Counted from the whole stretch's first letter, positions 12,701 through 52,321 are shown. The stretch: DNA of 57,818 bases, filler included, from Basidiobolus ranarum (GCA_040143965.1; 4 parts of 4 records of this genome joined end to end with filler, not necessarily neighbours in it); one strand, 5' to 3'. The notes: a model not told the origin generated them from the letters alone. Program-made: numbers and translations.

Positions 12701-12815
12701 CCTGAGATTTTTTTAGTCATCCAAATTAACCCCAGAATGACTTGTTTCACTCACACAGATGTTCAGAACACGATCCCATTATTTTTCTCTGTATTTACAC
12801 TGCAAGGTGTACTTC

Positions 12816-13986
12816 TGTTAAAGTATTTTAGGAGCCTATTGGAAGCGATTTGCAGAATTAGAGAAATTGGTGGTTTTCACTTACTGATTTATTGGATATT
12901 TAGTTGACATTTATAGTTTTGTCAAAATGTAAGCAAACTAACACATAGAATGTGTTAAGGAAGGTCCCAGAATCATGTGTGCAATGTTTGGGGCTTCTAG
13001 CACAAGTTTGAAAAAATCTATATATCAGAGAACTTCTAAGTTGGTAAAAATATTCAAAGTGAGTTTCAGCTGAGAATAATGGGTAATACCTTAGTAAAAT
13101 ATAGGATAAGTAAATACCAAACCATATATGTCTATGTAGGTGTTTAGGCCATCCAAATTTCAACACACTCTCTCAACTAAATAATCATGTAAACTAATTA
13201 TAAGGAAGGTCTAAATTTCTCAAATATCTGCCTAGTTAATGATTTGGTTAATATATCAAAAGTCATGTATTCTGTAGAACAAGTCAATAAGCTTATTCTC
13301 TATAGTTCCTGCAACAAAATGATGTCTAATAACTAAATGTTTGCTTTTAGTACAAAATATTGTAATTCTAGTTATCTTGATATAACTTTGATTATCTTGA
13401 AATATTGTAGTTGATGAGTTTTGAGAATAGCCCAAATCTGTTAAGACTTTTCTTGCCTATATTGCTTCTTTTACTAGAATATTTATATTTTAGGCACAGA
13501 TCCATAGTATCATTCAAATGTCAAAAAATATACTTGACTGCTATTATTTGATCAGATCCATTTTGAAGTTACCAGCACATAACTCCCATAACATATGCAA
13601 TGTCTGGCCATGTACCAGCCATGATATGCTGAATTCCAGTGTCTGTTTCCAATGCTTCTTTTATTAAGTTGGTTTCAGTACTTGTTAGTTCAAGATTGGT
13701 TTCAGAACTCATTAACTCAGAATTTGTGTTACTGAGAAATAGATTTTCAGCCAAAATCAAATTCCCTTGGTTAGAAGAATGAAGAGTTTCTTCAATAAAT
13801 ATAATGATGATAGCCTTTGTTCTGATATCATAATAGGATACATTTAATTGCCCTTTTGTCCAATTTTCTATGTTGTTGTTTGGGAATAAGAACATATACA
13901 GTTGATCCAAATATTTAGAGATAATTCAGATTAGGCTTGTTTCCAACCTAAATATCCATATGCGTTTTAGAGTCATGGTTGCTGTG
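12816..13986 (-). mobile_element. Ty1/copia family A 3' end: 3' LTR, PPT and decayed RNase H/RT fragments
   Basis: LTR 12816-13165 is preceded on the minus strand by the purine tract GAGAGAG. RNase H remnant is similar to 42702-42945; RT remnant 'GTWPDIAYVMG'; internally deleted. Confidence 0.85.
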
Positions 13987-14417
13987 TGTTAGATTTCTAT
14001 TTTGGAGATATGTAGCTGTCAAATTTGCTTCATCCCAATATATCTTTGGCAGATCTAAATTGTTTAGCATTTTATATGCTTTCTCCACTAAACACCTATT
14101 TATCTTTTCTGTTACACCATTTTGCTCTACACTATAACAAGTTATTGTTGAAGTTTATTGTATTTATCATATTTGTTATCTCTATCTTTATACACCTAAC
14201 CATTTCATATATCACATACAAGTTAGTTAACATTACTTAGTCAAATCTCACAAAGCTATTCACAACTGCACTTTTCTCAAGTTCCTCCAAACAGCCCATA
14301 TTTTCCCAATAGGTTATGAGCCCCATGTTCTAACCTTTACAGCATGACAGAAACCACTACTACCACTTTTATTAACTCAAGTGTTGAAAAGCTTGATGGA
14401 GAAAATTACAATTTCTG

Positions 14418-14517
14418 NNNNNNNNNNNNNNNNNNNNNNNNNNNNNNNNNNNNNNNNNNNNTTAATTAATTAANNNNNNNNNNNNNNNNNNNNNNNNNNN
14501 NNNNNNNNNNNNNNNNN
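14418..14517. other. Assembly gap with TTAATTAATTAA linker
   Basis: 100-base N run with a central six-frame-stop linker. Confidence 0.98.
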
Positions 14518-19083: not shown

Positions 19084-20675
19084 TGTTGACCTACACAAAA
19101 CTAAACTTTAGGTAGAAAAAGATATTTAATCACATTAATTGATAATTATACATGATACACTTTGGTCTACCTTATGCAACAAATATTAGAAGCTCTCTCT
19201 ATCTTTAGAGATTTTAAAACACTTGTGGAGACTGAAATGGGACTAAAATTAAGAAGATACATACTAAGAATGGTGGAGAATATATTTCAACACTATTGAA
19301 GCACTTTGGCTAAGTTCCTGAAATTAAGCAAAAAACTACTGCCCCTATTGACCTCAAAAAATAGGTGTTGCTGATGGGGCTAAGAGGACTATAATAGGAA
19401 TGGCAAGATCTATCATAACTGCACAAAGGTTATCTCAAAACTTTTAGATAGAATCTGTGCTACAGCTCTATATTGGAAAAATAAGAGTTTTACTAGAAGT
19501 GTGTCTAACCCTTTGCCATATCAAGCTTGGTTTGGAGTTAAACCTGATGCAAAATATTTGAGGATCTTTGAATGCATTGCTTATGTCAAAATTACAACCC
19601 AGAAATTGGTCTAAATTTGCTCCAAAAAGTAAAAAATGCATATTTCTGGGTTAATGTACCCAAACCAAGGCATACAGACTCTTTGATACTAAAATCTCTA
19701 AGTTATTTATGGCAGGGATGATTAGCTCAATCAAAATGAAAAATCTCACTCAAATTGTCCTTGGATGATGAAAAAAATCAATTTTCTCCTAATCCTTTCA
19801 TTTAACTTGAATCAAGCCAAAACAATGGAGAGAATAGAATTCCTGTGGACCCTTCTACCAGAATTGTGCTAAGTGAAGTGCCCATTGCAATTCCAGAAGC
19901 TGTGGTACCTTTATCCCAAACCAGCAGATTAGATCAGATCCAATTAGCCCTGATTACTCTATCAATGAGTCTCAAATTTGGCCCTATGACTGCACAGCTG
20001 AAATACATGAGCCACAGACCATAAAAGAGGCCCTGAATGACCCTCACACAATATTTTGGAGATTTGCAATGGCTGATAAGTACCAGGCTGTGATTGCTAG
20101 TCCAACTTGGACTTTAACAAATATTTTGATGTTGGACAATCATTGGTCTGCTGATTTATATTCAAAGTTAAATACAACACCAATAGAAGTATAGAAAGGT
20201 ACAAGGCTAGACTAGTTGCCAAAGGCCATTCCTAAGCACTAGGAACAGATTATACAAAAACATTTGCTCATGTAGCAAAGTTTAATTTAATCATATTGAT
20301 TTTGGCAATTCCAGCTAAATATCAGTTTAGTATACATTAAATAGATGTTAGAACTGCTTTTTTAAATGGTGAGCTGGGTGAGGTGACCTCTATGTACATG
20401 GCAGATAAATTTGTGGACCCAGAAAACCCTCAAAAAGCTTGCAGACCCTGGCAAACACTCTATGGCTTAAAATATACTCCAAGAGTTTGGAAAAGCAAGA
20501 TAGATGTGTATTTGGAAATATTCAAGTTCCAAAAGAATAATGCTGACTAAAGTATCTACTTCAGGCCAGACAAGACATACACAGTTTTATTAGCCATATA
20601 GTAGATGATGAAAGATAATGTTATCATTGTAACCAATGACTTAAAGACTTTAGAGAAAGCTAAATCAAGCTTATT

Positions 20676-23058
20676 CCCTAACAAAAATAATATCAATTTG
20701 ATCCAGATTGGATCTATGCTTCTGGATTGCAAGACCATCTGAGAACCATCACAATATTGGTGGCTTGCATTCTGCCAGGGATGTAGATGATGCAATGGTG
20801 GCTACTTGCTGGTATTTTGATGGTATGTATACGTGGTAAAATGTAGATCCTCACATTTAGCATGCATTCTTGATTTTCCAACAATGTTTCCAAAAAACTA
20901 ATTTTCAAATGGCAAATTACTGGGTTTATTGCTGTAGCAATTCAAATTAATATGCATGCCCTTATTTCAATGTTTTACTCTTTGTGTTCCAGCTGTAATG
21001 AAAATCAAACAATACAAGAATCTTATTTTGTTTAGTCTCTACATTTGCACATATTTGACTGATCAGATAGAGCTCAACAACATCAATATGCTTTACCAGC
21101 AAACTAATGATGGGGAAATTGCTAAACATCTCAAATTTGGAATAGCACTTGCATTTGGCATATAGCTGACTCTTGTTACCATTCATAGTGAGAATAAGCT
21201 CTTGGATTTTGTCAGCCAAAATACTCATAACTTGCATTGAACAAATGTCCTGTCATTAGTAGATGTGTCATTGCTTGAATAGATTACCCTATGGCTAAAA
21301 TGAAAATACTGCTTCTCTTCATCTATATCACCAAGCAGGCTATCTTGCAGCTTTCCTAGAAATACTATTGGATTAACACATGAACAAATTAGTCCAAAAT
21401 ATAGATGTACTTATTCTGTGTCCATGGATTGGCATTGCTGTTATTGTGCTCAAACAATGCAAAAACCCATTAATATATTCTGGTGTCTCCTTAACCCATT
21501 GCTTTACATCCATCACTAATTTACTGATACATTGTTGATCAGATTAGCATACCATGCTTGTGATTACTTTTTTAAGAAGGTCTCCAGCTTTTATATGACA
21601 AGAATCTGTGTTACTAATGGCCAGGCTTTGTTAAATGTTTGTGTTGAGGCTTGAGAAGGATATGGTAGGAAAAAGAACACCTCCTGTTAATGGCAAGCAT
21701 TAGTCCGCTCTTAACACTTACATTAAAGGAAGCAGTTTTGATTATTGAGGAGTGGTAAGTTCAATCCAATCTTAGCAACCAGGTGTTTATTGATATTCTT
21801 ACACTTCTACCATGGATGATTGGCAACTGTTGCTTACCACAGATCTAGTACAAGTGGAAAGCACTTGTCAATTGTGTGACTTATAATCCTTTAGTAATTA
21901 TACTACCTTCATATCCAAATGGTTGTTTGGCTTTTACCGGTGATCTGAAAAACTAGAAGTAATGAACTGTTTGCATACAATTGGCAATCACTAAATCAGG
22001 TACATATTGCTCATATTTGGCTTACATACTATTGATTCCCCATCTGAAAGTTTTGATGAAATAACCCAACTATAGATCATTGATCCAATACCATATTACT
22101 CTATGTAAAGCTGATGGTATGACTAATATACTTGATGGATATCACTACAAGAATCCAAAAAGTCAAGGTTTCTTTGAGGAAACATATGTTCACACATTTG
22201 CATTGGCTCTAGATGGTTCCTCCCTTTACAAATATACCATTGGAAATGCTTGCTGGGCAATAATTTTATTAACTCAAATCTTCCTCCATATGAACTGTAT
22301 AAAAGTCATAATATTTTGATACTATCCATCATTTCTGGACCTAAATCACCAGCACTTTTAGATGGCTTTTTGAAGCCTTTGATTGCAGAATATGAACAGA
22401 TATCTATTGAGGTTCCAATGAGTGAATATGTTATTAAAGCTAATATCATTGTATGTATTGGCAACACTGCCACCATCAGTAAACTTGCAGGTTTTTTTGG
22501 GCATGATGCACTTTCTTGCTGCTGATTTGCAAATCAACAGGGTATACTCTATTGGGCATGTGCTTTACTACTATGCAGTTACATCACTTAGCTCCATGAT
22601 TTTACCATTGAGGGCTGGGTCAGATTTCAACTTGCTCACTGATATCAATTTGCCAAATAGTCAGTTCAACATCAAACTTGGTATTATCTGTAAGCCAAAG
22701 ATTATATTGCTAAAGGGGATCAGCTGGAGCCAGAGCTTCTTGTTAAGCACTATGTACTTACTATTTAATAACATTCTGATACTACTTACTCAGCTCTATA
22801 GTAGAAAATTCAATTTAAATGAGCCATTTGAGATAGGATTAAAGTTTGAATCCATTGGGAAAATGCTTGTAGATGTCAAGATACCATCATATTTTGGCTG
22901 GACTCCTGTCAATATCCACTCATCTAGGTGTTTATTCAAATGCAAAGACTGGAAGCATTGGATTTGTATGTATCCCGGTGGAATCTTGAAAAGATATCTA
23001 CCTAATGAATATTGCTACATTGGGAGTTGTTTGTGAATATGGTTAATATTGATAAAAG
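20676..23058 (+). mobile_element. CACTA/EnSpm (CMC) DNA transposon, decayed and truncated
   Basis: Terminus CCCTAACAAAAATAA is shared with 42959. Tnp2/Transposase_21 motifs at ~22100-23040: 'LALDG', 'NLPPYELYKSHNILILSIISGPKSP', 'FLKPLIAE', 'SKLAGFFGH' and 'IPSYFGWTP...FKCKDWKHW'. Confidence 0.85.
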
Positions 23059-26000
23059 TTTTTAGGGGATTTGGAAGTATTTGGGCCAAGATTTGGAATT
23101 GCAAATCAGACACTTATGTTTTATTGAATCAAATATATACTATTTATAGTTTACTATGAAATAGAATTAATGGACATGCTTAGATCATAACAAACATGCC
23201 TGTTAATCATGAGTGAAAATTTGAGGTGATTTAGAGAGGTTTTGAGAAAATATTTAAAATTGAAAAAAGTGATCTAATTGACATTTCTACCAATTAGAGC
23301 AATAAACAAACATTTTCAATGACACAATTGAGTACTGAATAATCAGATTATGAATAAAGTAGCTGCTAAATAATGAATTGCTATTTACATAATTTCAACA
23401 TTACCACTCAACTAGCTATTTGTACTTCTCTTAAACCTAACTTATATCTTAATAATTCAAATTGTGCCTTGGCCAAAGTTTTGGCTAAGATGTCAGCAAT
23501 CATTTCTTCAGTAGAGCAATAGACAAGTCTAATTATATCATTCTCTTTTGCTTCTCTAATAAAATGATGTCTAATATATATATGTTTTGTTCTAGCATGA
23601 AATGTAGAGTTTTTAGCTGATGAAAAACAATTTTCATTATCTTCAAATACAGTAACAGCTCATTTTGCACATATCCTAAGTCTGTAAATAACTTCCTTAA
23701 CCACATAGCTTCTTGTGTAGTAGAAGAGGCAGCCATATACTCTGCTTCTGAAGTGGTAAGTGCCACAGTTAGTTGCTTGTTACTATTCCTATCAAATTGT
23801 GCTTTAGCTAAAGTTTTGGCTAAGATGTCAGCAATCATTTCTGCAGTAAGGCAATAGCCAAGTTCAATTAGATCATTATCTATTGCTTCTCCAACAAGTT
23901 AAGGCCTAATATCTTTATGTTTTGTTCTAGCATGAAATGTAGGGATTTTAGTTGATGAAAAACAACTTTGATTTATCTTCAAATACAGTAATAGCATATT
24001 TTTGCATGTATCCCAAGTCTGTAAATAACTTCCTCAACCACATAGATTCTTTTTTAGTAGCAGAGGCAGCCATATACTCTGCTTCTGTAGTGGAAAGTGC
24101 TGTCGTCGGTTGCTTGTGACTATTCCAAGTTATGGCTGCATTTGATTAGAGAAAAGAGTATCCAGTTATTTATCTTCTATTATCAGGGCTTCTTCCCCAG
24201 TCTGCATAACTGTAGGCTTTGAAACTTTGTGCATCAGGAGTGGCAGAATATTTCTGTACTAGATCTGCAGTTCCTCTGAAATATCTGAATATTTATTTTA
24301 CTGCAGTTTTGTGCTCAGATACTGGATTTTTTAAGGTATTAGCTGACAGTTCCCACTGCCACAGCAATGTCTGGACATGTTCTTACCATTGTATCCATTA
24401 AACTACCCACCATGGATTGATCAGGGAACTCCTGGCTTTGATTTAAGTCATTGTGTACTAAATCAGATGAAATCTTGATTATTTCCACATGGGGATCTAT
24501 TGGTGATGATACAGGCTTACAATTCTCCAAGTTGAAGAGTTTTATGATATCTAGGATGTTTCTAGACTGATTTAGCATGAATATCAGATTGGGTTTATTA
24601 TCTCTTGTTATAGATTCCAAGAAAATAACTCAATTCACCCATATCAGTCATCCGAAATTGGCTGGATATGCTGTTTTTTGTGTGGTGAAGTGCTTCTAGA
24701 TCACTTGTGACTATGAAGTTATCCACATATAGTGCTAAGATAAGGATACTATTTCCGGTTGTTTGATGTGAATCCTTTGATCTGCTGGGCATTTTTGGAA
24801 TTCAAGCATTTCCAAATAGGAATCTAACTTGATGTACCATGCCCTGGTTGCTTACTTGAGTCCTTATAGCATCTTTTGCAGTTTACAGACCATACCAGGG
24901 TGTTTTTGGTCAATAAATTCATCTGGTTGTTCCATATAGATCTCTTTTTTTAGATTTCCATTCAGAAAGGCTGCTTTTACATCCATCTGATGTAAATCAA
25001 GGTTATGAGTGACTGAGAGTGCCAGGATTGATCTAATGGAGCTAAACTTAGCTACAGGAGCAAAAGCTTCATTAAAGTCAACTCCTGGAGTCTGGGAATA
25101 ACCTTTTGAAACATTCTTGCTTTATTCCTCTCTATAGTTTCATCAGCTTGGTTTTAACTTTACAGACCCATTTGCAACCTATTAGCTTTCTCCCTGATGA
25201 TAAAGGATGTGAAAGCCACATTTTATTGTCCTGAAGTGAAGAAAACTCAGTACACATTGCTTCTTCCCAAAATCTTCATTCTGAACACTCCAGAGCTTGA
25301 TCTAGAGTCTGGGGTTTGTCACAGAATGCTGCATAAGCATATGCATCATCACTGGAAGTGTTCCACCAGATTCCTGGCTTATTTCTCCTTCTAGATGACA
25401 TGCTGGTTCCTAAATCATCTTCTGTTGTAATTGACGCTGTAATTTTGATTGAATAGGGCTCCCATACAGCTCAAACTTTGTCAGACACTTCCTGAATAGT
25501 GCTGATTGTGTTTCTGGACAAAGACTTGTGATATGAGGTGAAAAAGCTGCATTCTCATCAAAGCTCACTTCTCTGTATGTAATTAACTTGTGTATTTTGG
25601 TTACAAACAGTCTGTAGGCCTTAGATCCCTCACAATAACCAAGAATTATGCATTTTCTGCTTTTGAGTTCCAATAAGAGTGTTTTTGAGCTAGAATTAGG
25701 CAATATGCTATGCAAGCAAAGATCCTGAGATGATCCACACTTGGTTTTGATCCATAGAGGGCTTCAAATTGAGTAGAATTGTGTAGCAATCTTGTTGGGC
25801 TTCTGCTTTAATATAGATGGCAGTGGAGACAGCCTCAGCTCAATATCAATATTGTAGCTTTTGATTATTTAACTTTGATCTTGCCATCTCCACTATGATC
25901 CTATTAGCATGTTTTACAACTCCATTTTGCTGTGGAGTATATGATACAGTAGTTTGTTGCTTGAATTTATATTTAAAGCAAAAACCAGCAAAGTCTGTAG

Positions 26001-26332: not shown

Positions 26333-26638
26333 TGTTGAAATTAGGTAAATCACAACTCTTATTTAGTAGTTAGTTTATTCATATTCTTATTACTTAGTAC
26401 TCAATTCTGTCATTCAAAGACATGTGTAAATTGCTATAATTGATAGAAATATTAATTTGATCACTTTTAGCATTTTTCAAAATTTACTCAAATCTTCTCC
26501 AAATCACCTCAAATTTTCTGCCATGTTTGACAGGCATGTTTTTTATGATCTAACGATGTCCAATAGTTCTATTTCATTGTAAATTATAACTAGGACATAT
26601 ACAATCAAATAAAACTTAAGTGTCTAATTTAATCAAAA
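26333..26638 (+). mobile_element. Family C LTR, plus orientation, truncated by the next insertion
   Basis: Starts TGTTGAAATTA; its reverse complement matches 23100-23400 and 26687-26914. Confidence 0.8.
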
Positions 26639-28660
26639 TGTTTAGGGGATTTGGAAGTGTTTGGGACAAGATTTAAATTTGGAATCAGACACTTGAGTTT
26701 TATTAAATTGAATATGTGCTATTTATAGTTTACTATGAATTATGACTACTAGATGTGCTTAGATCATAACAAACTTGCCTGTTAAGCATTGGTGAAAATT
26801 TCAGATGATTTGGAGAAGATTTGAGAAAATAGTGTAAGTTGCTAAAAGTGATCTAAATGATACTTCTATCAATTGGAGCAATAAGCATATGTTTTTGAAT
26901 GACAGAATTGAGGACTAAAAGCCTTAGCTAAAGTTTTGGCTAAGAAATCAGCTATCTTTTCTTCAGTAGGGCAATAGACAGGTTCAATTATAGCATTCTC
27001 TATTGCCTCTCTAACTAAATGATGCCTAATATGTATATGTTTTGTTGTAGCATGAAATGTAGGGTTTTTAGCTGATGAAATACAACTTTTATCATCTTCA
27101 AGTACAGTTATAGCACATTTTTGCATGTATGCTAAGTCTGTATATAACTTTCTTAATCACATAGCTTCTTGTATAGTAGAACAGGCAGCTATATACTCTG
27201 CTTCTGAAGTGGTAAGTACCACATTTAGGTGTTGTTACTATTCCAAGTAATAGCTCCATTACCATAGAAAAACATGTACCAAGTTGTTGTTCTTCTATTA
27301 TCAAGGATTCTTTGCCAGTCTGCATCACTCTAGCCTACAAAATTTTGTGCATCAGCAGGTGCAGACTATTCCAGAACTAAATCTGCAGTTCCTCACAAAC
27401 ATCTGAGTATTTGCTTGACTGCAGTGTTGTTCTCAGATCCGGGATTATTGAGATATTGGCTGACAGTTCCCACTGCCACAGCAATGTTGGGACATGTTCC
27501 AACCATTGTATACACTAAACTACCCACCATGGATTGATAAGGGAACTCCTGGGTTTGATTTGAGTCATTTTTGGCCAAATCAGATGAAATTTTAAGTAAT
27601 TTCACATTCGGATCAATTGGTGTTGATAGAGGCTTGCTATTCTCCATGTTGAAGCAATTTAGGATGTCTTGAATGTATCTAGACTGATGCAGCATGAATT
27701 TTTGATTGAGTTTATATGTCTTTATTTGGATTGCAAGAAAATAACCCATTTCACCCATATCAGTCATCTGAAATTGGTTGGATATGCTTGTTTTTATGTG
27801 ATCAAGTGCTTCTAGATCATTAGTGGCCAAGATTAAGTCTTCCACATTGTGCTAAGATAAGGATCCTATTTGTAGTTGTCTTGATGTAAATACTGTGATC
27901 TGCTGTGCATTTTTGGAATTCAAGTGATTCCAAATAGGTATCTATCTTGTTGTACCATGCCCTGGGTGCTTGCTTGAGTCCTTATAGCATTTTTTGCAGT
28001 TTACAGACTATATCAGAGTGCTTTAGGACAACAAATCCATCTGGGTGGTCCATTTAGATCTCTTCTTTCAGAGTTCCATCCAGAAAGGCTGTGTTTACAT
28101 CCATTTGATGTAAATCAGGGTTATGGATGGCTGAGAGGGCCAGGATTGTTCTCATGGTGATAAGCTCAGCTACAGGAGCAAAAGTTTCACTAAAATTAAC
28201 TACTCAAGTCTGGAATAACATTTGTACCTTTCTAATGATCTATCTGAGTAACCCAGAATTATTCATTTTCTGCTTTTAGCTTCCAATTTTGAGCATTTTA
28301 AGCTGGAATTAGGCATTATGCTTGGCACCAAAGCTCCTGAGATGATCCATATTTGGTTCTGATCCATATAGGGCTTCAAATGGAGTAAAAGTTTGTAGCA
28401 ATTTTGTTGGGTATGTATTTTTGATATAGACAGCTGCAGTGACAGCTTTAGCCCCATATTGGTGATCTAATTCCATTCATGTAATATTGATCTTGCCATC
28501 TCAGCTATGGTTCTATTAGTATATTCTGCTACTCCATTTTGAAAATGGCTCTCTGTGATGTTTTCCATATGTGCAATCTTCACAATGATCCATTTAGTGA
28601 TATTTTCAATTTCTAAGCTAGAAACAAGCTGATTTTGATATCATTTGGGTCAGTTTTTGT
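26639..28660 (-). mobile_element. Second copia family C element (partial 3' LTR, RNase H, RT, partial integrase)
   Basis: LTR part 26639-26914. Motifs 'HATTKHIHIRHHLVRE', 'IADFLAKTL', 'PYQSMVGSLVY' and 'MTDMGEMGYFL'; paralogous to 23401-25900. Confidence 0.9.
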
Positions 28661-28902: not shown

Positions 28903-29002
28903 NNNNNNNNNNNNNNNNNNNNNNNNNNNNNNNNNNNNNNNNNNNNTTAATTAATTAANNNNNNNNNNNNNNNNNNNNNNNNNNNNNNNNNNNNNNNNNN
29001 NN
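28903..29002. other. Assembly gap with TTAATTAATTAA linker
   Basis: 100-base N run. Confidence 0.98.
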
Positions 29003-30552: not shown

Positions 30553-32149
30553 TTATTTCAGAAGTTCAAAACAAAGCTCTGAGGACTCGGGAGCCAGTAA
30601 GCCGAAAGAGCAAATCTTGAGAACTCCATCCGAGTGAACAGAGTCTTTTGGTAAAACCCAGCGGTGTTTTATAAGCAACATCGATAGGGATATACGCTGT
30701 TCCATTAGAGAGAAATTCATACCTATACACTGTCTTGACCCACCACCGAATGGTAACCAGCTGTAGGATGTCACATTGTCCTCGGTAAGGAATCTTTCAG
30801 GCTTGAATACTTCAGGTTCACTCCAATACTTTTCAGATCTTTGCATTTGATAAATATGTGGTGCAAACTTGGTCCCTGCAGGAAATACTTTTCCTTTGAA
30901 TTCAACTGGCTTCGTACTCTCACGTGCACCCAAACTAGGCACTGGAGGCACCAATCTCATAGCCTCTCTCATTATTGCATTGATATATGGCAATTCCTTA
31001 GCTTGTTGCTCCAATGTTGGATAAGTTCTGGGATCATCACCTAGCACCGCCAACGCCTCTTTACGTGCCTTTTCCTGGCATTCTGGATACATCGCCAGGT
31101 AACAAAGAGCTGATGCAAGAGAGTTGGCTGTAGTGTCGTGGCCAGCAATAAAGAATACTAACAAATCACTGCGTAACTCTTCATTGGTCAGGATTTGGTC
31201 TTCATGAGTGGATTTGATCATCAGTGTGAGAAGATCAGTTGATCGTTCATCGAATGTGCCATCTTCCACTTTCTTTTGATACGATTTCTGCTTATCATCT
31301 AATATGCTATACAACAATGCATTGAACTCTTCTGTAAGCCTCTTGAACCTAAGGTTTTTAGGCAAGGGCAGTTTCGACAAAAATGGAAAGAATGCTCTGA
31401 ACGGATCAAATAGTCCCTTCATCACATCATTGTATAGCGTGACTCTCTGGCCTTCATGATCCTGCAGGGCATGAAAATCATAATCAAATAACCCCTGGCC
31501 TAGCACATCCAAGGTCATTCGTTGCATTAAATTGTGAGCATCTTGAGCTTTACCAAGATTTTCGTCGATCACATCAAATAAATTATATACGCTATCTGCA
31601 AATAATTTTGTTGCCCAGGGTCGTCGAAAAGCTGGGTTCGCTACTTTGCGGTGTTTTTTCCATTCATCCCCAATAGTATTCACGATATTTTGGCCGAAGA
31701 ACTTGAACCCGCTGGTATTTCGCCTCGCTTCAGATGGTTGAAATTTAGGGAATGTTTCTAAAAAGGGGATGTTAATAATCGACTTTTAGTAATTAGAGAG
31801 AAAGTTTCTTACCGGTTTGTAAGCAGATGTGTTTGCAGTCCTCCGGGTCCAGAACAAATACAACCCACATAGCTCCAGAAAACACCTATCCATAAGATGG
31901 TTTAAAACCGGTAATGAAATGAGGATAATTTTTCGTGCATACCTTGGCCATTTTATGTTCTTCCAAAACTGGACCCAAATGTTCACGGAGCGTTACAGAA
32001 AATCCTTTTTTCGATAGTAACCCTGACAGTACCGTCCAAACAGAAAGGCCAGGAACATCCTTCAAATGAGGTGGTACCTTGACCCAATTGTAGATTAAAT
32101 ACGCAGGTACAACAATAATCGCAGCAAAGGTCAAAAGCAAGGCTGACAT
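30553..32149 (-). CDS. Cytochrome P450
   Basis: Exons 32149-31943, 31885-31813, 31757-30553. N-terminal membrane anchor, I-helix AGHDTT, ExxR 'EAMR', PERF, and heme motif 'PFGGGSRQCIG'. Confidence 0.96.
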
Positions 32150-41183: not shown

Positions 41184-41508
41184 TGTTGAAATGAGCATAG
41201 CCTAAAAACCTATATAGTCTTATATAGCTTTGCATTTAGTTATTCCAAATTGTACTAAGATATCGCCTCCAGAGGAGTTTACGTAGAATATTGACACCAA
41301 CTTAGAAGTTCTTGGATATGTAGATTTTTGAAACTTATGCTAGAAGCCCCAAACTTTGCACACATGCTCTTGGGACCTTAACACATTCTATACACTTGTT
41401 TGTGCACATCTTGAAAAACTATAAACGTCAACTTTCAACTCAATAAATCTATATGTGAAATCCATCAATTCTTGTAGTTCTCCAAACTACTCTCAAAACA
41501 CCTTAACA
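41184..41508 (+). mobile_element. Solo LTR, copia family A
   Basis: Runs TGTTGAAAT...TTAACA with TSD TACCA/TACTA. Confidence 0.85.
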
Positions 41509-41773
41509 TACTATACATTGCTTAGAGCGTAGGCTTGCAATTCGTGCTTGGTGTGAGCACCTCAATACTTTTTTATATGGCTTTACCAAGTACAAATTAT
41601 ATTCAATTAGTCTAGTATACTTGGCTTATAGATATCCAAGAGCTAGTTTTGTTATTATCTTTATCTTACTTGTTTTACCATTCTTGGTCCATCAAACACT
41701 TTCACATAGTAGATATAAGTAGGTGAATGTTAAATAGTTAAACATCACTTGACTAAAAGTTGAAATTTTTATT

Positions 41774-41995
41774 TGTTACAGTATTTGGGAGCCTGTTGGA
41801 AGTGGTTTGGAGAATTAGAGGAATTGGTGGTTTTCACTTGTTGATTTATTGAGTAAAAAGTTGGCATATATAATTTTGGGAAGATGGATGAATTCCTCAT
41901 GAGAATCATGGGTAATATCTTGGTGAAATATAGAATAAACTATATACTAAGCAATATACAACTATATAGGTGTCTAGGCAATGCTAATTTCAACA
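41774..41995 (-). mobile_element. Internally deleted family A LTR
   Basis: Both LTR termini are present, with ~120 bp missing from the centre. Confidence 0.75.
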
Positions 41996-42410
41996 GTGTC
42001 TAGGCTATGTATGGATTTTCCTATAACTACTAATTCTGAACTCAAAGTTTGAGAGTCATCTAATATCTGTTAAAGTATTAGGGAGCCTGTTGGAAGTGGT
42101 TTGGAGAAATAGAGAAATTGGTGGCTTTCATATATTAATTTGTTGAATAGAAAGTTGACCTCTATAGTTTTGTCAAGATGTAAGCAAACTAACAGGTAGA
42201 ATGTGTTAAGGAAGGTCCCAGGAACATGTGTGCAAAGCTTGGGGCTTCTAGTACAAGTTTGAAAAATCTATATCTCTGAGAACCTACAAGTTAGTAAAAT
42301 ATTCCAAGTGGATTCCAATTAAGAATAATGGGAAATATCTTGGTAAGATATAAGATAACTAAACACTAACTAATATATGACTATTTAGGTGCTTAGGCAA
42401 TGCTAATTTC

Positions 42411-42692
42411 TATTGAAATTATTTAGGGAGAAATAATGGTCTGGCCAGGATTTGAACCTGGGACCTCCTTCACCCTAGCTAGGTGCTCCAACCACTGAGC
42501 TACCAGTCCTTGTATGCTATGCCTATACTGCTAGGGAGCCTTAATCTAGTCTGTCAATGTATGGTACTTTGGCATATCAGCTATACAAGCAACTGATTGG
42601 CCTTAGACTTTGTGTTCAGATGCAGTTGCCATACTCCATATTTTCCTCTTTGGATATTACTGCTTGTACCACCAGTCACCAGACTTTCAACA
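42411..42692 (-). mobile_element. Solo LTR containing a tRNA-derived sequence (TRIM/Helenus-like)
   Basis: Ends TATTGAAA...TTTCAACA, perfect TSD ATTTC (42406-42410 and 42693-42697), internal tRNA-like 73-mer. Confidence 0.8.
42437..42509 (-). tRNA. tRNA-like pseudogene, Pro(AGG)-like, carried inside an LTR
   Basis: Minus strand reads GGACTGGTAGCTCAGTGGTTGGAGCACCTAGCTAGGGTGAAGGAGGTCCCAGGTTCAAATCCTGGCCAGACCA. A box, B box, D stem and T stem are intact; acceptor stem pairs 6/7 and anticodon stem only 3/5. Confidence 0.75.
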
Positions 42693-42958
42693 ATTTCAAT
42701 ACTCTCCCTCAACTAAATAGTCATATAAACTAATCCTAAGGAAGGTCTAAATTTCCAAAATTTCTCTCTAGCTAATGGTTTGCTTAATATATCAGCTATT
42801 ATGTCTTCTTTAGAACAATAAGTAAGTCAATAAACATATTCTCTATAGTCTCTCTAATAAAGTGATGTCTAATATCTATATGTTTGCTTCTATTATGAAA
42901 TGTGGAATTTTTAGCTAATATGATACAACTTTGATTATCTTGAAAGTGCTATGGTAGG

Positions 42959-43370
42959 CCCTAACAAAAATAAAATCAATTGGATCCGGATTAGATCCAC
43001 CATTGTGGATCTCAAAACCATGAGAGAACCATCACAATACTGGTGGCTTGCATTCTGCCAAATATTCTGATGGTGTAACAGCAGCTTCTTGATGGTGTCT
43101 TGACAATATTCATACATGTAAAAATATTGATCCACATACTTGGCATGAGTTATTTAATTTCCATCAATTTAGCAAAAATATAATTTTCAAATGGCAAATT
43201 ACTGGGTTTACTGCTATAGAAATTTAAATTAACATGCATGCCTTTATTTAGATATTTTTGGCTTTGTATTCCAGCCATAATGAGAATCAAAAAATACAAG
43301 AATCTTGTTGTGTTTAGTCTCTACATATGCACATACTTGACTGATTAGACATAACTCAACAACATCAATA
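42959..43370 (+). mobile_element. Left end of a second CACTA/EnSpm copy
   Basis: CCCTAACAAAAATAA terminus plus ~400 bp collinear with 20676-21090. Confidence 0.8.
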
Positions 43371-43470
43371 NNNNNNNNNNNNNNNNNNNNNNNNNNNNNN
43401 NNNNNNNNNNNNNNTTAATTAATTAANNNNNNNNNNNNNNNNNNNNNNNNNNNNNNNNNNNNNNNNNNNN
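43371..43470. other. Assembly gap with TTAATTAATTAA linker
   Basis: 100-base N run. Confidence 0.98.
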
Positions 43471-44117
43471 CTCCATGCCTTTGTAGTTATAGCTCTTGAA
43501 CATTGAATTAGCAATTTGTCTTTAACATTAAGACAAATTGTGTTAAAAGCACTTTGTTCTTTTTTAACCCAGAGTAAAACTTTGATTTTGAAGTGTTTTG
43601 CATTGTTCTCTTCTCCTACAACAGTGTCCCAAAGTCCTTTTTCTTGCAGCAGCATTTTCATTTTAATTTTCAAAACTTGATAATTGGTTTTATCCAATTG
43701 TTCAGAAAAGGGAAAAATTCCATAAATTTGAGAAGTAGATATCACAGAGAGTGCAAGCTTGGGACTCATAACCTGTTAAAGTATTTGGGAGCCTGTTGGA
43801 AGTGGTTTGGAGAATTAGAGAAATTGGTGGTTTTCACTTACTGATTTATTGAGTTGAAAGTTTACAATTATACTTTTGTCAAGATGCAAATAAATAAGTA
43901 GAATGTGTTAAGGAAGATCCTAGGAACATGTGTGCAAGGTTTAGAGCTTCTAGCACCAGTTTGAAAAATCTACATATCTGAGAACTTTTAAGTTGGTAAA
44001 AATATTCCAAGTAAATTCCACTTGAGAATAGTGGGTGATTTCTTAGTGCAATATGGAATAACTAAATACTAAGCTATATATGACTATATAGATGTTTAGG
44101 CAATACTAATTTCAACC
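43471..44117 (-). mobile_element. Copia family A 5' end: 5' LTR, PBS and gag start
   Basis: LTR 43774-44117, PBS GGTTATGAGTCCC (43773-43761), gag 'QLDKTNYQVLKIKMKMLLQEKGLWDTVVG'. Confidence 0.9.
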
Positions 44118-48443: not shown

Positions 48444-49434
48444 ATTTTATAAGTTCTATCGAGATTACTGGTATAAATCAAAATAAATATCATTAACTTC
48501 CATCCTCTTTCATTGCACTTTCCAACCGAATAAAGTATCTTTTTTACCGAGACTAAACGTGCGGAATGAAAATACCTGAAATATGGTTTGTTTCGATTAT
48601 CACTAAGACGCAAAGAAGCAGTCAGAGGCTATGTTCACTCGAAATCTCGAAAATTAAATAATTTTGGTCCCTAATTGTTGATCAGAGGCCAAATTTTTTT
48701 GCATTATACAAGAGTGAAGTGGATTTTTTTTCGATCACATGACTTGAGGTTTGTATCTAACAGCTCAGTATTTACAAAACCGTAACCGACGCTATTCTTC
48801 AGTTGATTGGCTGAGTGTTGATTTTGTGCACTTTCGCATCCACAATTATTTAGGATGAGTAATGAACGAGGTAGCACAAGATGCAGCCTCTATCGAAATT
48901 GCGCTTGGTGATAACTTACTTTAAAGCGGCCCATATATTACAAATGTTCAGCCTCACAAGTACACTTCCGCCTGCACTAGAACACATGGAATATGAATGT
49001 ATAAGAGTTTTTACTGGTTTCCCCACAAACTCAAAGAATATTGCTTACTCATACACATCCCTTCATTTAAACTCCATCTGATATGAAAATAGATAATCAC
49101 TCAATTTATTCTATGCTTAGCAACTGGCATAATCGGCTTACAGTTTACACATGTGATTTGTTTAGTTATCATTTGGGTGAATGGTGAGTATCCATCTTTT
49201 GTATTTTTTAGTAGATCATCGTGCAATGAAGTGATACATTCCGCGATGTTTCCAGCATAGTTTAAGGTAATAGCACACCAAGAAACAGTCACATCACAAC
49301 ATTGCACGTGTCATTTCGGTTTATAACTTATCATATTCTAAATCCAGTTCTAGTTCCAGTTCTTATTTACAGCGCTCACTCGATATAATTCCCACTAATT
49401 CGAGTCAACAGGAGGTCGTTTTTTATGTAGACTC

Positions 49435-50583
49435 CTATAATTCACTCAACCAGATGGAAGAAGAGTTTTCTTCGCCGATTTCCCGCGTTATTGAGAAAAT
49501 CTTCTTGTTCATATTATGAAACATCAAGCCAAATTTCCTCAATGGTTTAGGAATCTCTTGGGGTTCTTGCTTATCACTTGGCTCGTCTCTTTCCTTACCA
49601 ATGGAGTGATTTTTATCCTTTAGTGGTTCTTGAGGCTCTTGCTTTCCCGTTGGTTTGCCATTAGCAACGGGCTTAGGCTTCTCTAATGACACGGGGAGTT
49701 TTAGAGGTACCTGTTTGTCCAACGGTTCACTTTGATTTTTACCGATGGGATCAGGTTTCTCTTCCATTGGCTCGGGAGACTCTTGAGGTTCTTGGTTATC
49801 AATCGGCTCACCACTATTGTTATCCTGGTCTGCAGAGTCCCCTGTATTTGATGGCTCGGGAGATTCCTGAGGTACCGGGTTATCAATCGGCTGACTAGTA
49901 TCCTTATCTAGAGAGGCTGTCTTTCTCGATGATTTACGAGACTTTTGACGTTCTTGCTTATCACTCGATTCATCACTGCCCCTATTCATGGAGTCAGACT
50001 TCTTCGATGATTTACGAGAGTTCTGACGCTCCTGTCGATCACTTGATTCATCGTTATCCTCATTCATGGAGGAAGATTCCTGTGAGGATACACGAGAGCT
50101 CTGGCGTTCCTGTTTATCACTTGACTCATCACTGCCCCTATTCATAGAGGCAGATTTACTTGATGAATTACGAGAGTTCTGACGTTCCTGTCTATCACTC
50201 AATTCATCGTTATCCTTATTCATGGAAGAAGATTCCCTTGAGGATTTAAGAGAATTCTGACGTTCCTGTTTATCACTTGAATCATTACTGCCCCTATTCA
50301 TAGAGGCGAATTTACTCGATGATTTACGAGATTTTTGACGTTCCCGCTTATTGCTCCATCCGTCCTTGTCTTTATTCATGGAGCCTGGTTTCCTTGATGA
50401 TTTACGAGATCTATGACGTCTACCACTGGAAGCAGACTCGTTGGGCCTCATGCCGTTGGTCGGTGAATTATCAGGACGATTTCTCATAGCCGAGGAGACT
50501 TCAAATGGGGCAGCCTCAACAGCGAGCATATAGGAAGAAGATACGATAGCCAGAGATAGGACTGCAAGAGTAGAGGAGCGCAT
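49435..50583 (-). CDS. Secreted Ser/charge-rich tandem-repeat protein, unknown function
   Basis: Signal peptide 'MRSSTLAVLSLAIVSSSYMLAVEA', six 26-aa repeats, a TATA box ~170 bp upstream, and a paralog at 51399-51785. Confidence 0.85.
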   Translation of the reverse strand: MRSSTLAVLSLAIVSSSYMLAVEAAPFEVSSAMRNRPDNSPTNGMRPNESASSGRRHRSRKSSRKPGSMNKDKDGWSNKRERQKSRKSSSKFASMNRGSNDSSDKQERQNSLKSSRESSSMNKDNDELSDRQERQNSRNSSSKSASMNRGSDESSDKQERQSSRVSSQESSSMNEDNDESSDRQERQNSRKSSKKSDSMNRGSDESSDKQERQKSRKSSRKTASLDKDTSQPIDNPVPQESPEPSNTGDSADQDNNSGEPIDNQEPQESPEPMEEKPDPIGKNQSEPLDKQVPLKLPVSLEKPKPVANGKPTGKQEPQEPLKDKNHSIGKERDEPSDKQEPQEIPKPLRKFGLMFHNMNKKIFSITREIGEENSSSIWLSEL

Positions 50584-51398: not shown

Positions 51399-51785
51399 AT
51401 GCGTTTCTCTACCTTCGCCATCTTATCTATTGCCATCGTATCTTCTTCTTACATGCTTGCTGTCGAAACTGCTCCATTTGAGATCACCGCAGTCATGAGA
51501 AATCAGCCTGATAACACCATGACTACAGCTAAGGGTATCGAGTCCGTCGAAACTGTTCCATCTATGGACCAAGCTGATGTTACACCATCTCTTACGGAGA
51601 ATATCACTCCCGTGATGAAGGAAAATGGTGAACCCATTGCTAAGCAGGAAGCTCCAGGATTTCGCAAATCATTGAAGGAGAAGTTTGGCACAATGCTTCA
51701 GAATATGGAAAAGAAGGTGTTCTCAACAAAGAAGGAAGCCGGTGAGGAAACCCCAAAATCTGTCTGGATGAACAGAAGATCATAA
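51399..51785 (+). CDS. Small secreted protein, short paralog of 49435-50583
   Basis: 'MRFSTFAILSIAIVSSSYMLAVETAPFE..MRNQPDN' and C-terminal 'KFGTMLQNMEKKVFS..E.GEE...S.W' match the long paralog. Confidence 0.85.
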   Translation: MRFSTFAILSIAIVSSSYMLAVETAPFEITAVMRNQPDNTMTTAKGIESVETVPSMDQADVTPSLTENITPVMKENGEPIAKQEAPGFRKSLKEKFGTMLQNMEKKVFSTKKEAGEETPKSVWMNRRS

Positions 51786-52321
51786 GAGTCTATACAACAA
51801 ATAACTTTCCATTGACTCGAATTAGTGGGGATTATATCGAGTGAGCGCTGTAAATAAGAACTGGAACTAGAACTGGATATTAGAATATGATAAGTTATAA
51901 ACCGAAATGACACGTGCAACGATGTGATGTGACTGTTTCTTGGTGTGCTATTACCTTAAACTATGCTGGAGCTCTGGGAAACATCGCAGAAGGTATCACT
52001 TCATTGCACGATGATCTACTAAAAAATACAAAAGATGGATACTCACCATTCACCCAAATGATAACTAAACAAATCACATGTGTAAACTGTAAGCCGATTA
52101 TGCCAGTTGCTAAGCATAGAATAAATTGAGTGATTATCTATTTTCATATCAGATGAAGTTTTAATGAAAAGGTGTCTGTGCATAAGTTTCTTCCAGTATG
52201 CTCATCTGTACATGAAGCAATGAGCATAGAAGGACGCAGATAGCAAATAGCCAGCATTATTTACGTGTAAGACTGAATGGTTTGTTTATGAAAAGATTTT
52301 AAGAATATTCGTAGATAGAAT

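Follow-up and report, generated by a model that had tools for sequence, protein, structure and literature searches.

A 282-bp insert in the genome of Basidiobolus ranarum (GCA_040143965.1), at positions 42411–42692 of the 57,818-nt stretch of joined contigs analysed here (the window), is probably the solo long terminal repeat (LTR) of a Helenus-type element, that is, a short retrotransposon with a tRNA module in its LTR, which would have been moved in trans by a B. ranarum Ty1/copia element. The insert is bounded by a perfect target-site duplication (TSD), has copia-like termini, lies in an LTR of a copia family and carries a tRNA-like module with both box A and box B. Going by its sequence, it has every feature of Helenus that a solo LTR can show; transcription by RNA polymerase III (Pol III), non-autonomy, mobilisation in trans and a former two-LTR state are what we infer from those features. 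Elements of this kind were described in 2024, and what is new is the occurrence in Basidiobolomycota, which is absent from the published Helenus list.

A discrete insert in the end of a copia LTR

On the plus strand the insert reads TATTGAAA...TTTCAACA and is bounded by a perfect 5-bp duplication, ATTTC. The duplication can also be read as the 6 bp AATTTC (42405–42410 and 42692–42697), which makes the right boundary ambiguous by 1 nt. In the sense of the interrupted host LTR the duplicated target is GAAAT, and the insertion point lies 9 nt within the end of that LTR that adjoins the polypurine tract (PPT), the order in sense being TATTGAAAT, insert, GAAATTAGCAT.

Excision of the insert in silico joins GCTAATTTCAATA to CTCTCCCTCAAC, and the product is collinear with a paralogue that lacks the insert (...AAATTTCAACA + CACTCTCTCAAC) at 13150–13180. 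BLAST pairs 12814–13161 with 42066–42410 (82.8%) and 13156–13402 with 42692–42945 (79.3%), and the paralogous LTR together with its downstream sequence to 13402 is continuous across the insertion point. On these alignments the paralogue at 12815–13402 is the empty site in paralogous form. The initial annotation had described a 282-bp insert with LTR-type inverted ends and a perfect ATTTC duplication and had proposed that its removal restores the end of the host LTR; the sequence and the empty-site paralogue bear out both statements. The features of the insertion are as follows.

42411–42692, minus strand: insert, putative solo LTR, in sense 5' TGTTGAAAG ... AATTTCAATA 3' (from sequence, empty-site paralogue and copia-like termini)
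42406–42410, unstranded: left copy of the target-site duplication ATTTC (from sequence)
42693–42697, unstranded: right copy of the target-site duplication ATTTC (from sequence)
12815–13165, minus strand: uninterrupted paralogous LTR, sharing downstream internal sequence to 13402; putative empty site (BLAST and alignment)

An origin of these junctions by assembly chimerism, or by a recombination or gene-conversion patch between diverged LTRs, is very improbable. The contigs are short (~14.4 kb) and break in repeats, and several rearranged LTR copies lie nearby, all of which would suit an artefact; against it stand the perfect direct repeat at both junctions, flanks that are exactly collinear with the uninterrupted paralogue, and the fact that no sequence in the window resembles the insert closely enough to be its donor.

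A tRNA-like module with intact internal promoter boxes

ARAGORN calls a tRNA-Pro(AGG) on the minus strand of the insert, its sole call in the window, and the Rfam tRNA model matches with 51.2 bits (gathering score 29; E = 4.4e-8 for the whole window), likewise as the only tRNA match. In the Rfam alignment the D stem (4/4) and the T stem (5/5) are fully paired and both arms are intact, while 6 of 7 positions pair in the acceptor stem and 3 of 5 in the anticodon stem, the remainder being non-standard pairs (one and two, respectively). The loop presents the anticodon AGG, and the sequence ends on a discriminator A with no encoded CCA. Box A and box B, read off the same alignment, are both intact. 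The 73-nt module with intact boxes, a Pro(AGG)-like 3' half and a broken anticodon stem, as first annotated, is borne out.

42437–42509, minus strand: tRNA-like sequence, 73 nt, at sense positions 184–256 of the LTR (ARAGORN, Rfam)
42492–42502, minus strand: box A, TAGCTCAGTGG, tRNA positions 8–18 (Rfam alignment; fits the Helenus pattern TRGCY...YGG)
42448–42458, minus strand: box B, GGTTCAAATCC, tRNA positions 52–62 (Rfam alignment; contains the GGTTC conserved in Helenus)
42431–42436, minus strand: TTATTT directly behind the tRNA-like part, candidate weak Pol III stop (R/U5 border)

The minimum-free-energy structure predicted for the 73 nt differs from a cloverleaf, and in the centroid fold the anticodon stem is missing; together with the broken anticodon stem in the alignment, this makes a working tRNA unlikely and a Pol III promoter plausible. 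It is accordingly hard to credit that the module is a functional tRNA-Pro(AGG) gene which the LTR has spread or merely carries. The two program calls, together with the U33 and the position-37 purine that flank AGG, would be in keeping with such a gene; the three non-standard pairs and the predicted folds are not, and most tRNA-like parts of Helenus are non-functional according to Kojima (PMC10886601).

Rfam finds no other tRNA-like and no 5S-like part in the LTRs of the window. An antisense match to the Rfam family Plastid-ycf2 (31.2 bits, where the gathering score is 65.7) mirrors the tRNA match and was rejected. We also rejected an origin by read-through of a primer tRNA, in which the primer-binding site (PBS) would have been extended over the whole tRNA, since the module ends on the discriminator A with no added CCA; the sense orientation of the tRNA-like part under the preferred reading disfavours that origin as well.

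Layout and orientation of the putative LTR

Read on the minus strand, the insert consists of 183 nt unique within the window, the tRNA-like part, TTATTT, and a final 20 nt ending in AATTTCAATA. Only 26 nt therefore follow the tRNA-like part, and they contain no A-rich or simple-repeat tail. TTATTT holds the first T-run longer than 2 on this strand, and a later TTT lies near the end; throughout sense positions 1–256, the presumed U3 plus a tRNA-like R, no T-run exceeds 2. By comparison, the host LTRs examined contain one to seven TTTT runs in 6 of 6 cases, and 27 of 2260 segments of 256 nt from the whole sequence are free of TTT. A sense strand so poor in T-runs is the look expected of an LTR that Pol III must traverse, and it lends modest support to such a role. 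Mainly by analogy with Helenus, and with the T-run pattern in addition, we take the minus strand to be the probable sense strand. A scan of 42300–42800 for bacterial-type promoters and terminators gave nothing of use, the models being uninformative for a eukaryote.

This layout bears directly on whether the insert could be a tRNA-derived short interspersed element (SINE), or another retrocopy of a Pol III transcript, placed in the copia LTR by non-LTR machinery. SINE2 elements do share with the insert a tRNA-derived module with A and B boxes, and the insert is short. In contrast to their 5' tRNA head, the tRNA-like part begins at nt 184 of 282; where they have a tail, the 26 nt behind it have none; and where they have a long TSD, the insert has a copia-like 5-bp one, with TG...(C/T)A inverted-repeat ends that match copia LTR ends. 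We regard this origin as highly improbable. The initial annotation had likewise dismissed a SINE, citing the lack of poly-A and TG..CA ends; the dismissal, the missing tail and the LTR-type ends all stand, and in sense the 3' end is TA.

Comparison with Helenus and related elements

Helenus (TRIMp3) was described by Kojima in 2024 as TRIMs (miniature terminal-repeat retrotransposons) bearing in their LTRs a tRNA-derived part that has a conserved box A (TRGCY...YGG) and box B (GGTTC); complete elements have two LTRs, a PBS and a PPT, lack coding capacity and measure 311–1263 bp in total (PMC10886601). Those of fungi, like those of plants, have 5-bp TSDs; the fungal ones are tied to copia through their PBS, and many families are known only as solo LTRs (PMC10886601). 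In the insert the corresponding boxes read TAGCT..TGG and GGTTC within the 51.2-bit tRNA match. The parallel with Helenus and Cassandra, which the initial annotation had drawn, proved correct when set against that paper and its consensus sequences.

We compared the layout by eye with the 26 complete rust LTR consensus sequences in part 1 of the supplement, layout being no stated criterion of PMC10886601. In 26 of 26 the tRNA-like part has the sense orientation and occupies the 3' part of the LTR, with a short tail containing a T-run behind it, which is the arrangement seen in the insert when it is read on the minus strand, an orientation that its ends fix only weakly. The rust LTRs in this part of the supplement start tgt(t/c/a), several of them tgttgaaat; LTR-1_PGr and LTR-1_PSt end ...ttcaata, as the insert does, and Helenus-2_PTrit ends aatttcaaca. 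Many of the rust internal parts there open with ggttatgagccc, the PBS string that adjoins copia sequences twice in the window and that Kojima assigns, for rust Helenus, to the use of the anticodon-loop region of initiator tRNA-Met as primer (PMC10886601). The TSD length is 5 in all fungal rows of Table S1 that we considered, as it is for the insert. At 282 bp the insert is close in size to, but longer than, the fungal LTRs in those rows (111–269 bp), and it falls within the overall Helenus range there, which reaches 323 bp.

In sum of individual features, the insert resembles fungal Helenus (Pucciniales and Agaricomycetes) in its TGTTGA start, the sense tRNA part near the LTR 3' end, the T-run tail, the 5-bp TSD, the link to copia, the solo-LTR state that is frequent there, and the miscall as a tRNA gene. 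It differs in its host phylum, Basidiobolomycota, in its longer LTR, and in being known here from a solo LTR alone.

Four motif look-ups in the published consensus sequences, made in place of a consensus alignment, suggest that the insert is none of the listed Helenus families, since two motifs are absent and the two that match are generic parts of tRNA. The T-arm 16-mer matches two Cronartium families in the whole supplement, and the box-A 13-mer occurs six times there, those occurrences that were displayed being in oyster families. The variable loop plus T arm at 42448–42470 (minus strand), 23 nt reading GAGGTCCCAGGTTCAAATCCTGG, is identical in the consensus sequences of Helenus-4_CroRib and Helenus-16_CroRib from Cronartium ribicola, as given in the supplement (PMC10886601); this identity may reflect common descent or the same parental tRNA type. 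An apparent likeness of the acceptor stem to that of rust Helenus-4 (GACTGG) came from a by-eye comparison offset by one position, and we do not count it as homology.

The published fungal hosts of Helenus are only Pucciniales and three Agaricomycetes (PMC10886601), and a search of that paper and its supplement by term found no Basidiobolus, Zoopagomycota, Mucor or Entomophthor-. Literature searches, judged by titles and abstracts, found no report of such elements in Basidiobolus; PMC13570524, in the portion consulted, cites Helenus only in passing.

Two other elements combine a small-RNA promoter with an LTR. Cassandra, a plant TRIM, resembles the insert in that its LTR contains a small-RNA gene whose Pol III promoter is internal, and Pol III transcripts have been reported for it (as stated in PMC10886601); unlike the insert, its module derives from 5S rRNA and its hosts are plants. 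Ajax, a nemertean TRIM, is a TRIMp3 with a 5-bp TSD like that of the insert, but has a partial 5S promoter and an animal host. No 5S rRNA match was found in 41500–43500 at E up to 1, nor in the whole window at E up to 5.

Insert termini and the resident copia LTRs

The left terminus of the insert, TATTGAAATTA, agrees at 10 of 11 positions with TGTTGAAATTA, the start of the resident LTR family, so the resemblance to local copia LTR starts first proposed for it is real. In sense, the first 8 nt of the insert and the resident LTRs are the same (TGTTGAAA), the last ~20 nt are similar (CTCCC.AAATA.TTT.AA.A), and the orientations agree under the preferred reading. When the minus-sense ends are scored against host LTR ends, the observed score is reached by 13 of 3000 shuffles for the first 24 nt and by 4 of 3000 for the last 24 nt. 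Between these ends the resident LTRs are unlike the insert: their bodies are unrelated to it, they have no tRNA-like part, and they contain TTTT runs. The common ends and the 5-bp TSD fit, though they do not prove, mobilisation by an integrase of the resident copia type; TGTTGAAAT-type starts are also found in rust elements, and the end match is therefore not specific to the resident family. The LTR copy at 1889–2209 also starts with TATTGAAATTA, which has the G-to-A variant of the first dinucleotide seen in the host LTR and at the plus-strand end of the insert.

The same termini could be taken for the 8-bp inverted repeats of a miniature inverted-repeat transposable element (MITE) holding a tRNA-like piece by chance, TGTTGAAA and TTTCAATA matching at 7 of 8 positions. 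This inverted repeat is no longer than is usual for LTR ends, the ends match those of the adjoining copia LTR, and the layout is that of Helenus LTRs. The common superfamilies of DNA transposons are generally known for TSDs of lengths other than 5 bp. A MITE is scarcely credible on this evidence.

The host element and its neighbourhood

The interrupted LTR belongs to a family of ~345 bp, nine copies or fragments of which we aligned in the window; seven of the eight other copies begin (T/G/C)(G/A)TTGAAAT in sense. A purine tract lies directly outside the host LTR, which identifies it as the 3' LTR of a minus-strand element, and this element extends off the contig end at 43370.

42068–42410, minus strand: host copia LTR downstream of the insertion, LTR nt 10 to end in sense (LTR family alignment)
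42693–42701, minus strand: first 9 nt of the host copia LTR, in sense TATTGAAAT, severed by the insert (sequence, alignment)
42702–42710, minus strand: host polypurine tract, in sense GAGGGAGAG, abutting the host LTR (sequence; the paralogue has GAGAGAGTG there)
43471–44117, minus strand: copia sequence of the next contig, with LTR 43775–44117, PBS GGTTATGAGTCC 43762–43773 and gag N-terminus 43471–43772 (Pfam, PBS match, spacer)

The spacer in the last entry is one of three N blocks (14418–14517, 28903–29002 and 43371–43470), each made up of 44 N, TTAATTAATTAA and 44 N. They divide the window into four contigs of 14417, 14385, 14368 and 14348 bp joined in falling size order, and being artificial joints they render adjacency across them artificial. 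The insert lies near the end of the third contig (29003–43370). We therefore rejected the idea that the host element is a single deleted copia of 2 kb running from 44117 to 42068.

The host LTR family is, on sequence grounds, Ty1/copia, an assignment drawn from pieces (gag, RT, PBS and PPT) on different contigs. At 43471–44117 Pfam reports Retrotran_gag_2 (E = 2.7e-6) together with DUF4219, adjoining the PBS and an LTR of the same family, and RVT_2 fragments lie at 28057–28203 and 20341–20547. Resident copia copies carry the PBS GGTTATGAG(C/T)CC, and exact matches to GGTTATGAGYCC occur at 14312–14323 (plus strand) and 43762–43773 (minus strand), both adjoining gag-like open reading frames (ORFs) of copia.

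Several further observations concern the surroundings of the host element. Two host-family LTRs in the same orientation, ~70 bp apart, occupy 41770–42410 (41773–41995, with an internal deletion of ~120 bp, and 42068–42410), and a third in the opposite orientation lies at 41184–41496, giving a tandem or nested arrangement of LTRs to the left of the insert. On the other side, at 42698–43370, the host copia has a degenerate internal part. A short ORF at 42802–42948 (minus strand) encodes what we take, by its motif, to be a peptide like the end of copia RNase H; Pfam gives no match to it at E up to 0.01. Finally, 42959–43370 matches 20676–21088, beside an RVT_2 fragment on the plus strand, which suggests rearrangement.

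Every contig end of the window lies within copia sequence. The second contig contains repeats unrelated to the insert, namely 23801–25106 against 26921–28223 (82%, 1.3 kb, direct) and shorter direct and inverted repeats between 23044–23789 and 26333–27244, and the fourth has an inverted repeat pair at 49062–49613 and 51600–52168 (~560 bp, 85% identity) and tandem-like repeats at 49923–50419. Of the long ORFs, 30553–31785 (minus strand) encodes a cytochrome P450 with 100% identity over 98% to a B. ranarum protein; others match the Pfam families Kre9/KNH, arrestin/LDB19, mitochondrial carrier, CBS, PB1 and GYF, which are of fungal gene type. These matches place the DNA in the fungus B. ranarum and not in a plant.

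A possible scar of module capture

The 7-mer CTCCCTA occurs twice in the insert, at sense positions 155–161 and 263–269; between the two copies lie a 22-nt leader, the tRNA-like part and TTATTT.

42532–42538, minus strand: CTCCCTA direct repeat, upstream copy, 22 nt before the tRNA-like part (shuffles)
42424–42430, minus strand: CTCCCTA direct repeat, downstream copy; possible scar of tRNA-module capture, found post hoc

Repeated 7-mers number four in the 282 nt against a shuffle mean of 2.7, and a repeat flanking the module within set distances appears in 506 of 20,000 shuffles. Excision of the block in silico, which is offset by one base, leaves a 3' end ...AAGGCTCCCTAAA(A)TAATTTCAATA that is nearer to the host ends ...CAGGCTCCCAAAATACTTTAACA than the native end is (score reached by 0 of 2000 and 33 of 2000 shuffles, respectively). 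The block may sit where an LTR of resident copia type formerly had its U5 end. The scar was recognised post hoc, and fits Kojima's proposed origin of Helenus by insertion of a SINE into an LTR, with a tRNA-derived SINE as the donor of the module (PMC10886601). That a Pol III-promoter LTR element was born independently in this deep-branching fungal phylum, and that the insert records the event in a scar still legible, is a speculative proposal and on balance an unlikely one; alternatively, its module might be homologous to those of the rusts.

Weighing the alternatives

The most serious competitor, one that we hold possible although doubtful, is that the insert is the solo LTR of an ordinary Pol II copia family, which may be autonomous or a large derivative, and that the tRNA or SINE piece is a passenger and not a promoter. 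The TSD, the empty site and the copia-like ends apply to it equally. The CTCCCTA-bracketed block and the better match of the ends once it is removed would then mark a secondary insertion into a normal LTR, and a length of 282 bp exceeds every fungal Helenus LTR in the Table S1 rows considered. Against a mere passenger, the module is placed exactly as in all the Helenus LTRs that were compared, boxes A and B are intact while the anticodon stem has decayed, and the sense strand has no T-runs before the module ends, unlike the six host LTRs. Furthermore, no coding copia bearing an LTR of the insert type is present in the window.

Several observations weigh against a Helenus-type solo LTR. The window's 57.8 kb hold one copy of the insert (a BLAST search at word size 7 returned only chance-level matches of 11–20 nt), and neither a second LTR nor a PBS or PPT belonging to it is seen. 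Its 3' end reads TA instead of CA, and behind the tRNA-like part there is no run of at least 4 T that could act as a canonical stop. The depletion of T-runs is weak, 1451 of 20,000 composition-matched shuffles being equally poor in them. The ends barely set the orientation: since each is the inverted repeat of the other, the opposite, plus-sense reading scores nearly alike against the host ends (26 of 3000 shuffles for the first 24 nt, 23 of 3000 for the last 24 nt). The body of the insert shows no significant similarity to four host LTRs by local alignment (182, 33, 78 and 78 of 300 shuffles reach the score). The predicted fold of the 73 nt is no better than that of shuffles (z = 0.43), and neither the D-arm 20-mer nor the 5'-end 10-mer of the insert has a match in the whole published Helenus consensus file (0 matches).

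A model for the origin of the insert

If the insert is the solo LTR of a Helenus-type element, its parent would have been a pair of such LTRs flanking a short internal part that contained a PBS and a PPT. Pol III, recruited by boxes A and B, would begin transcription in the 5' LTR shortly upstream of the tRNA-like part, pass the weak T-run, cross the internal part and continue through the U3 of the 3' LTR, which is free of T-runs. The transcript would stop at TTATTT behind the tRNA-like part of the 3' LTR, and the tRNA-like part would serve as its terminal redundancy (R). Copia Gag-Pol would package and reverse-transcribe this RNA, and the copia integrase would insert the DNA, with a 5-bp duplication, at a point 9 nt within an older copia's 3' LTR. 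Recombination between the two LTRs would later leave one.

Significance

A copy in Basidiobolomycota would extend Helenus/TRIMp3 beyond the rusts and three Agaricomycetes to an early-diverging phylum, and it bears on whether such elements arose recurrently or are ancient. If the insert is an independent birth, it would be direct evidence that TRIMp3 elements arise by retro-insertion of a Pol III transcript or SINE into a copia LTR; if its module is instead homologous to those of the rusts, Helenus would be ancient in fungi or have moved horizontally. The scar, should further copies show it too, would illustrate concretely the acquisition of a Pol III promoter by an LTR. There is also a practical side. 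Helenus copies are miscalled as tRNA genes by tRNA finders, and inflated counts have been shown for rusts (PMC10886601). The insert is itself called tRNA-Pro(AGG) by standard tools, so that such elements can inflate tRNA gene counts in Basidiobolus as well.

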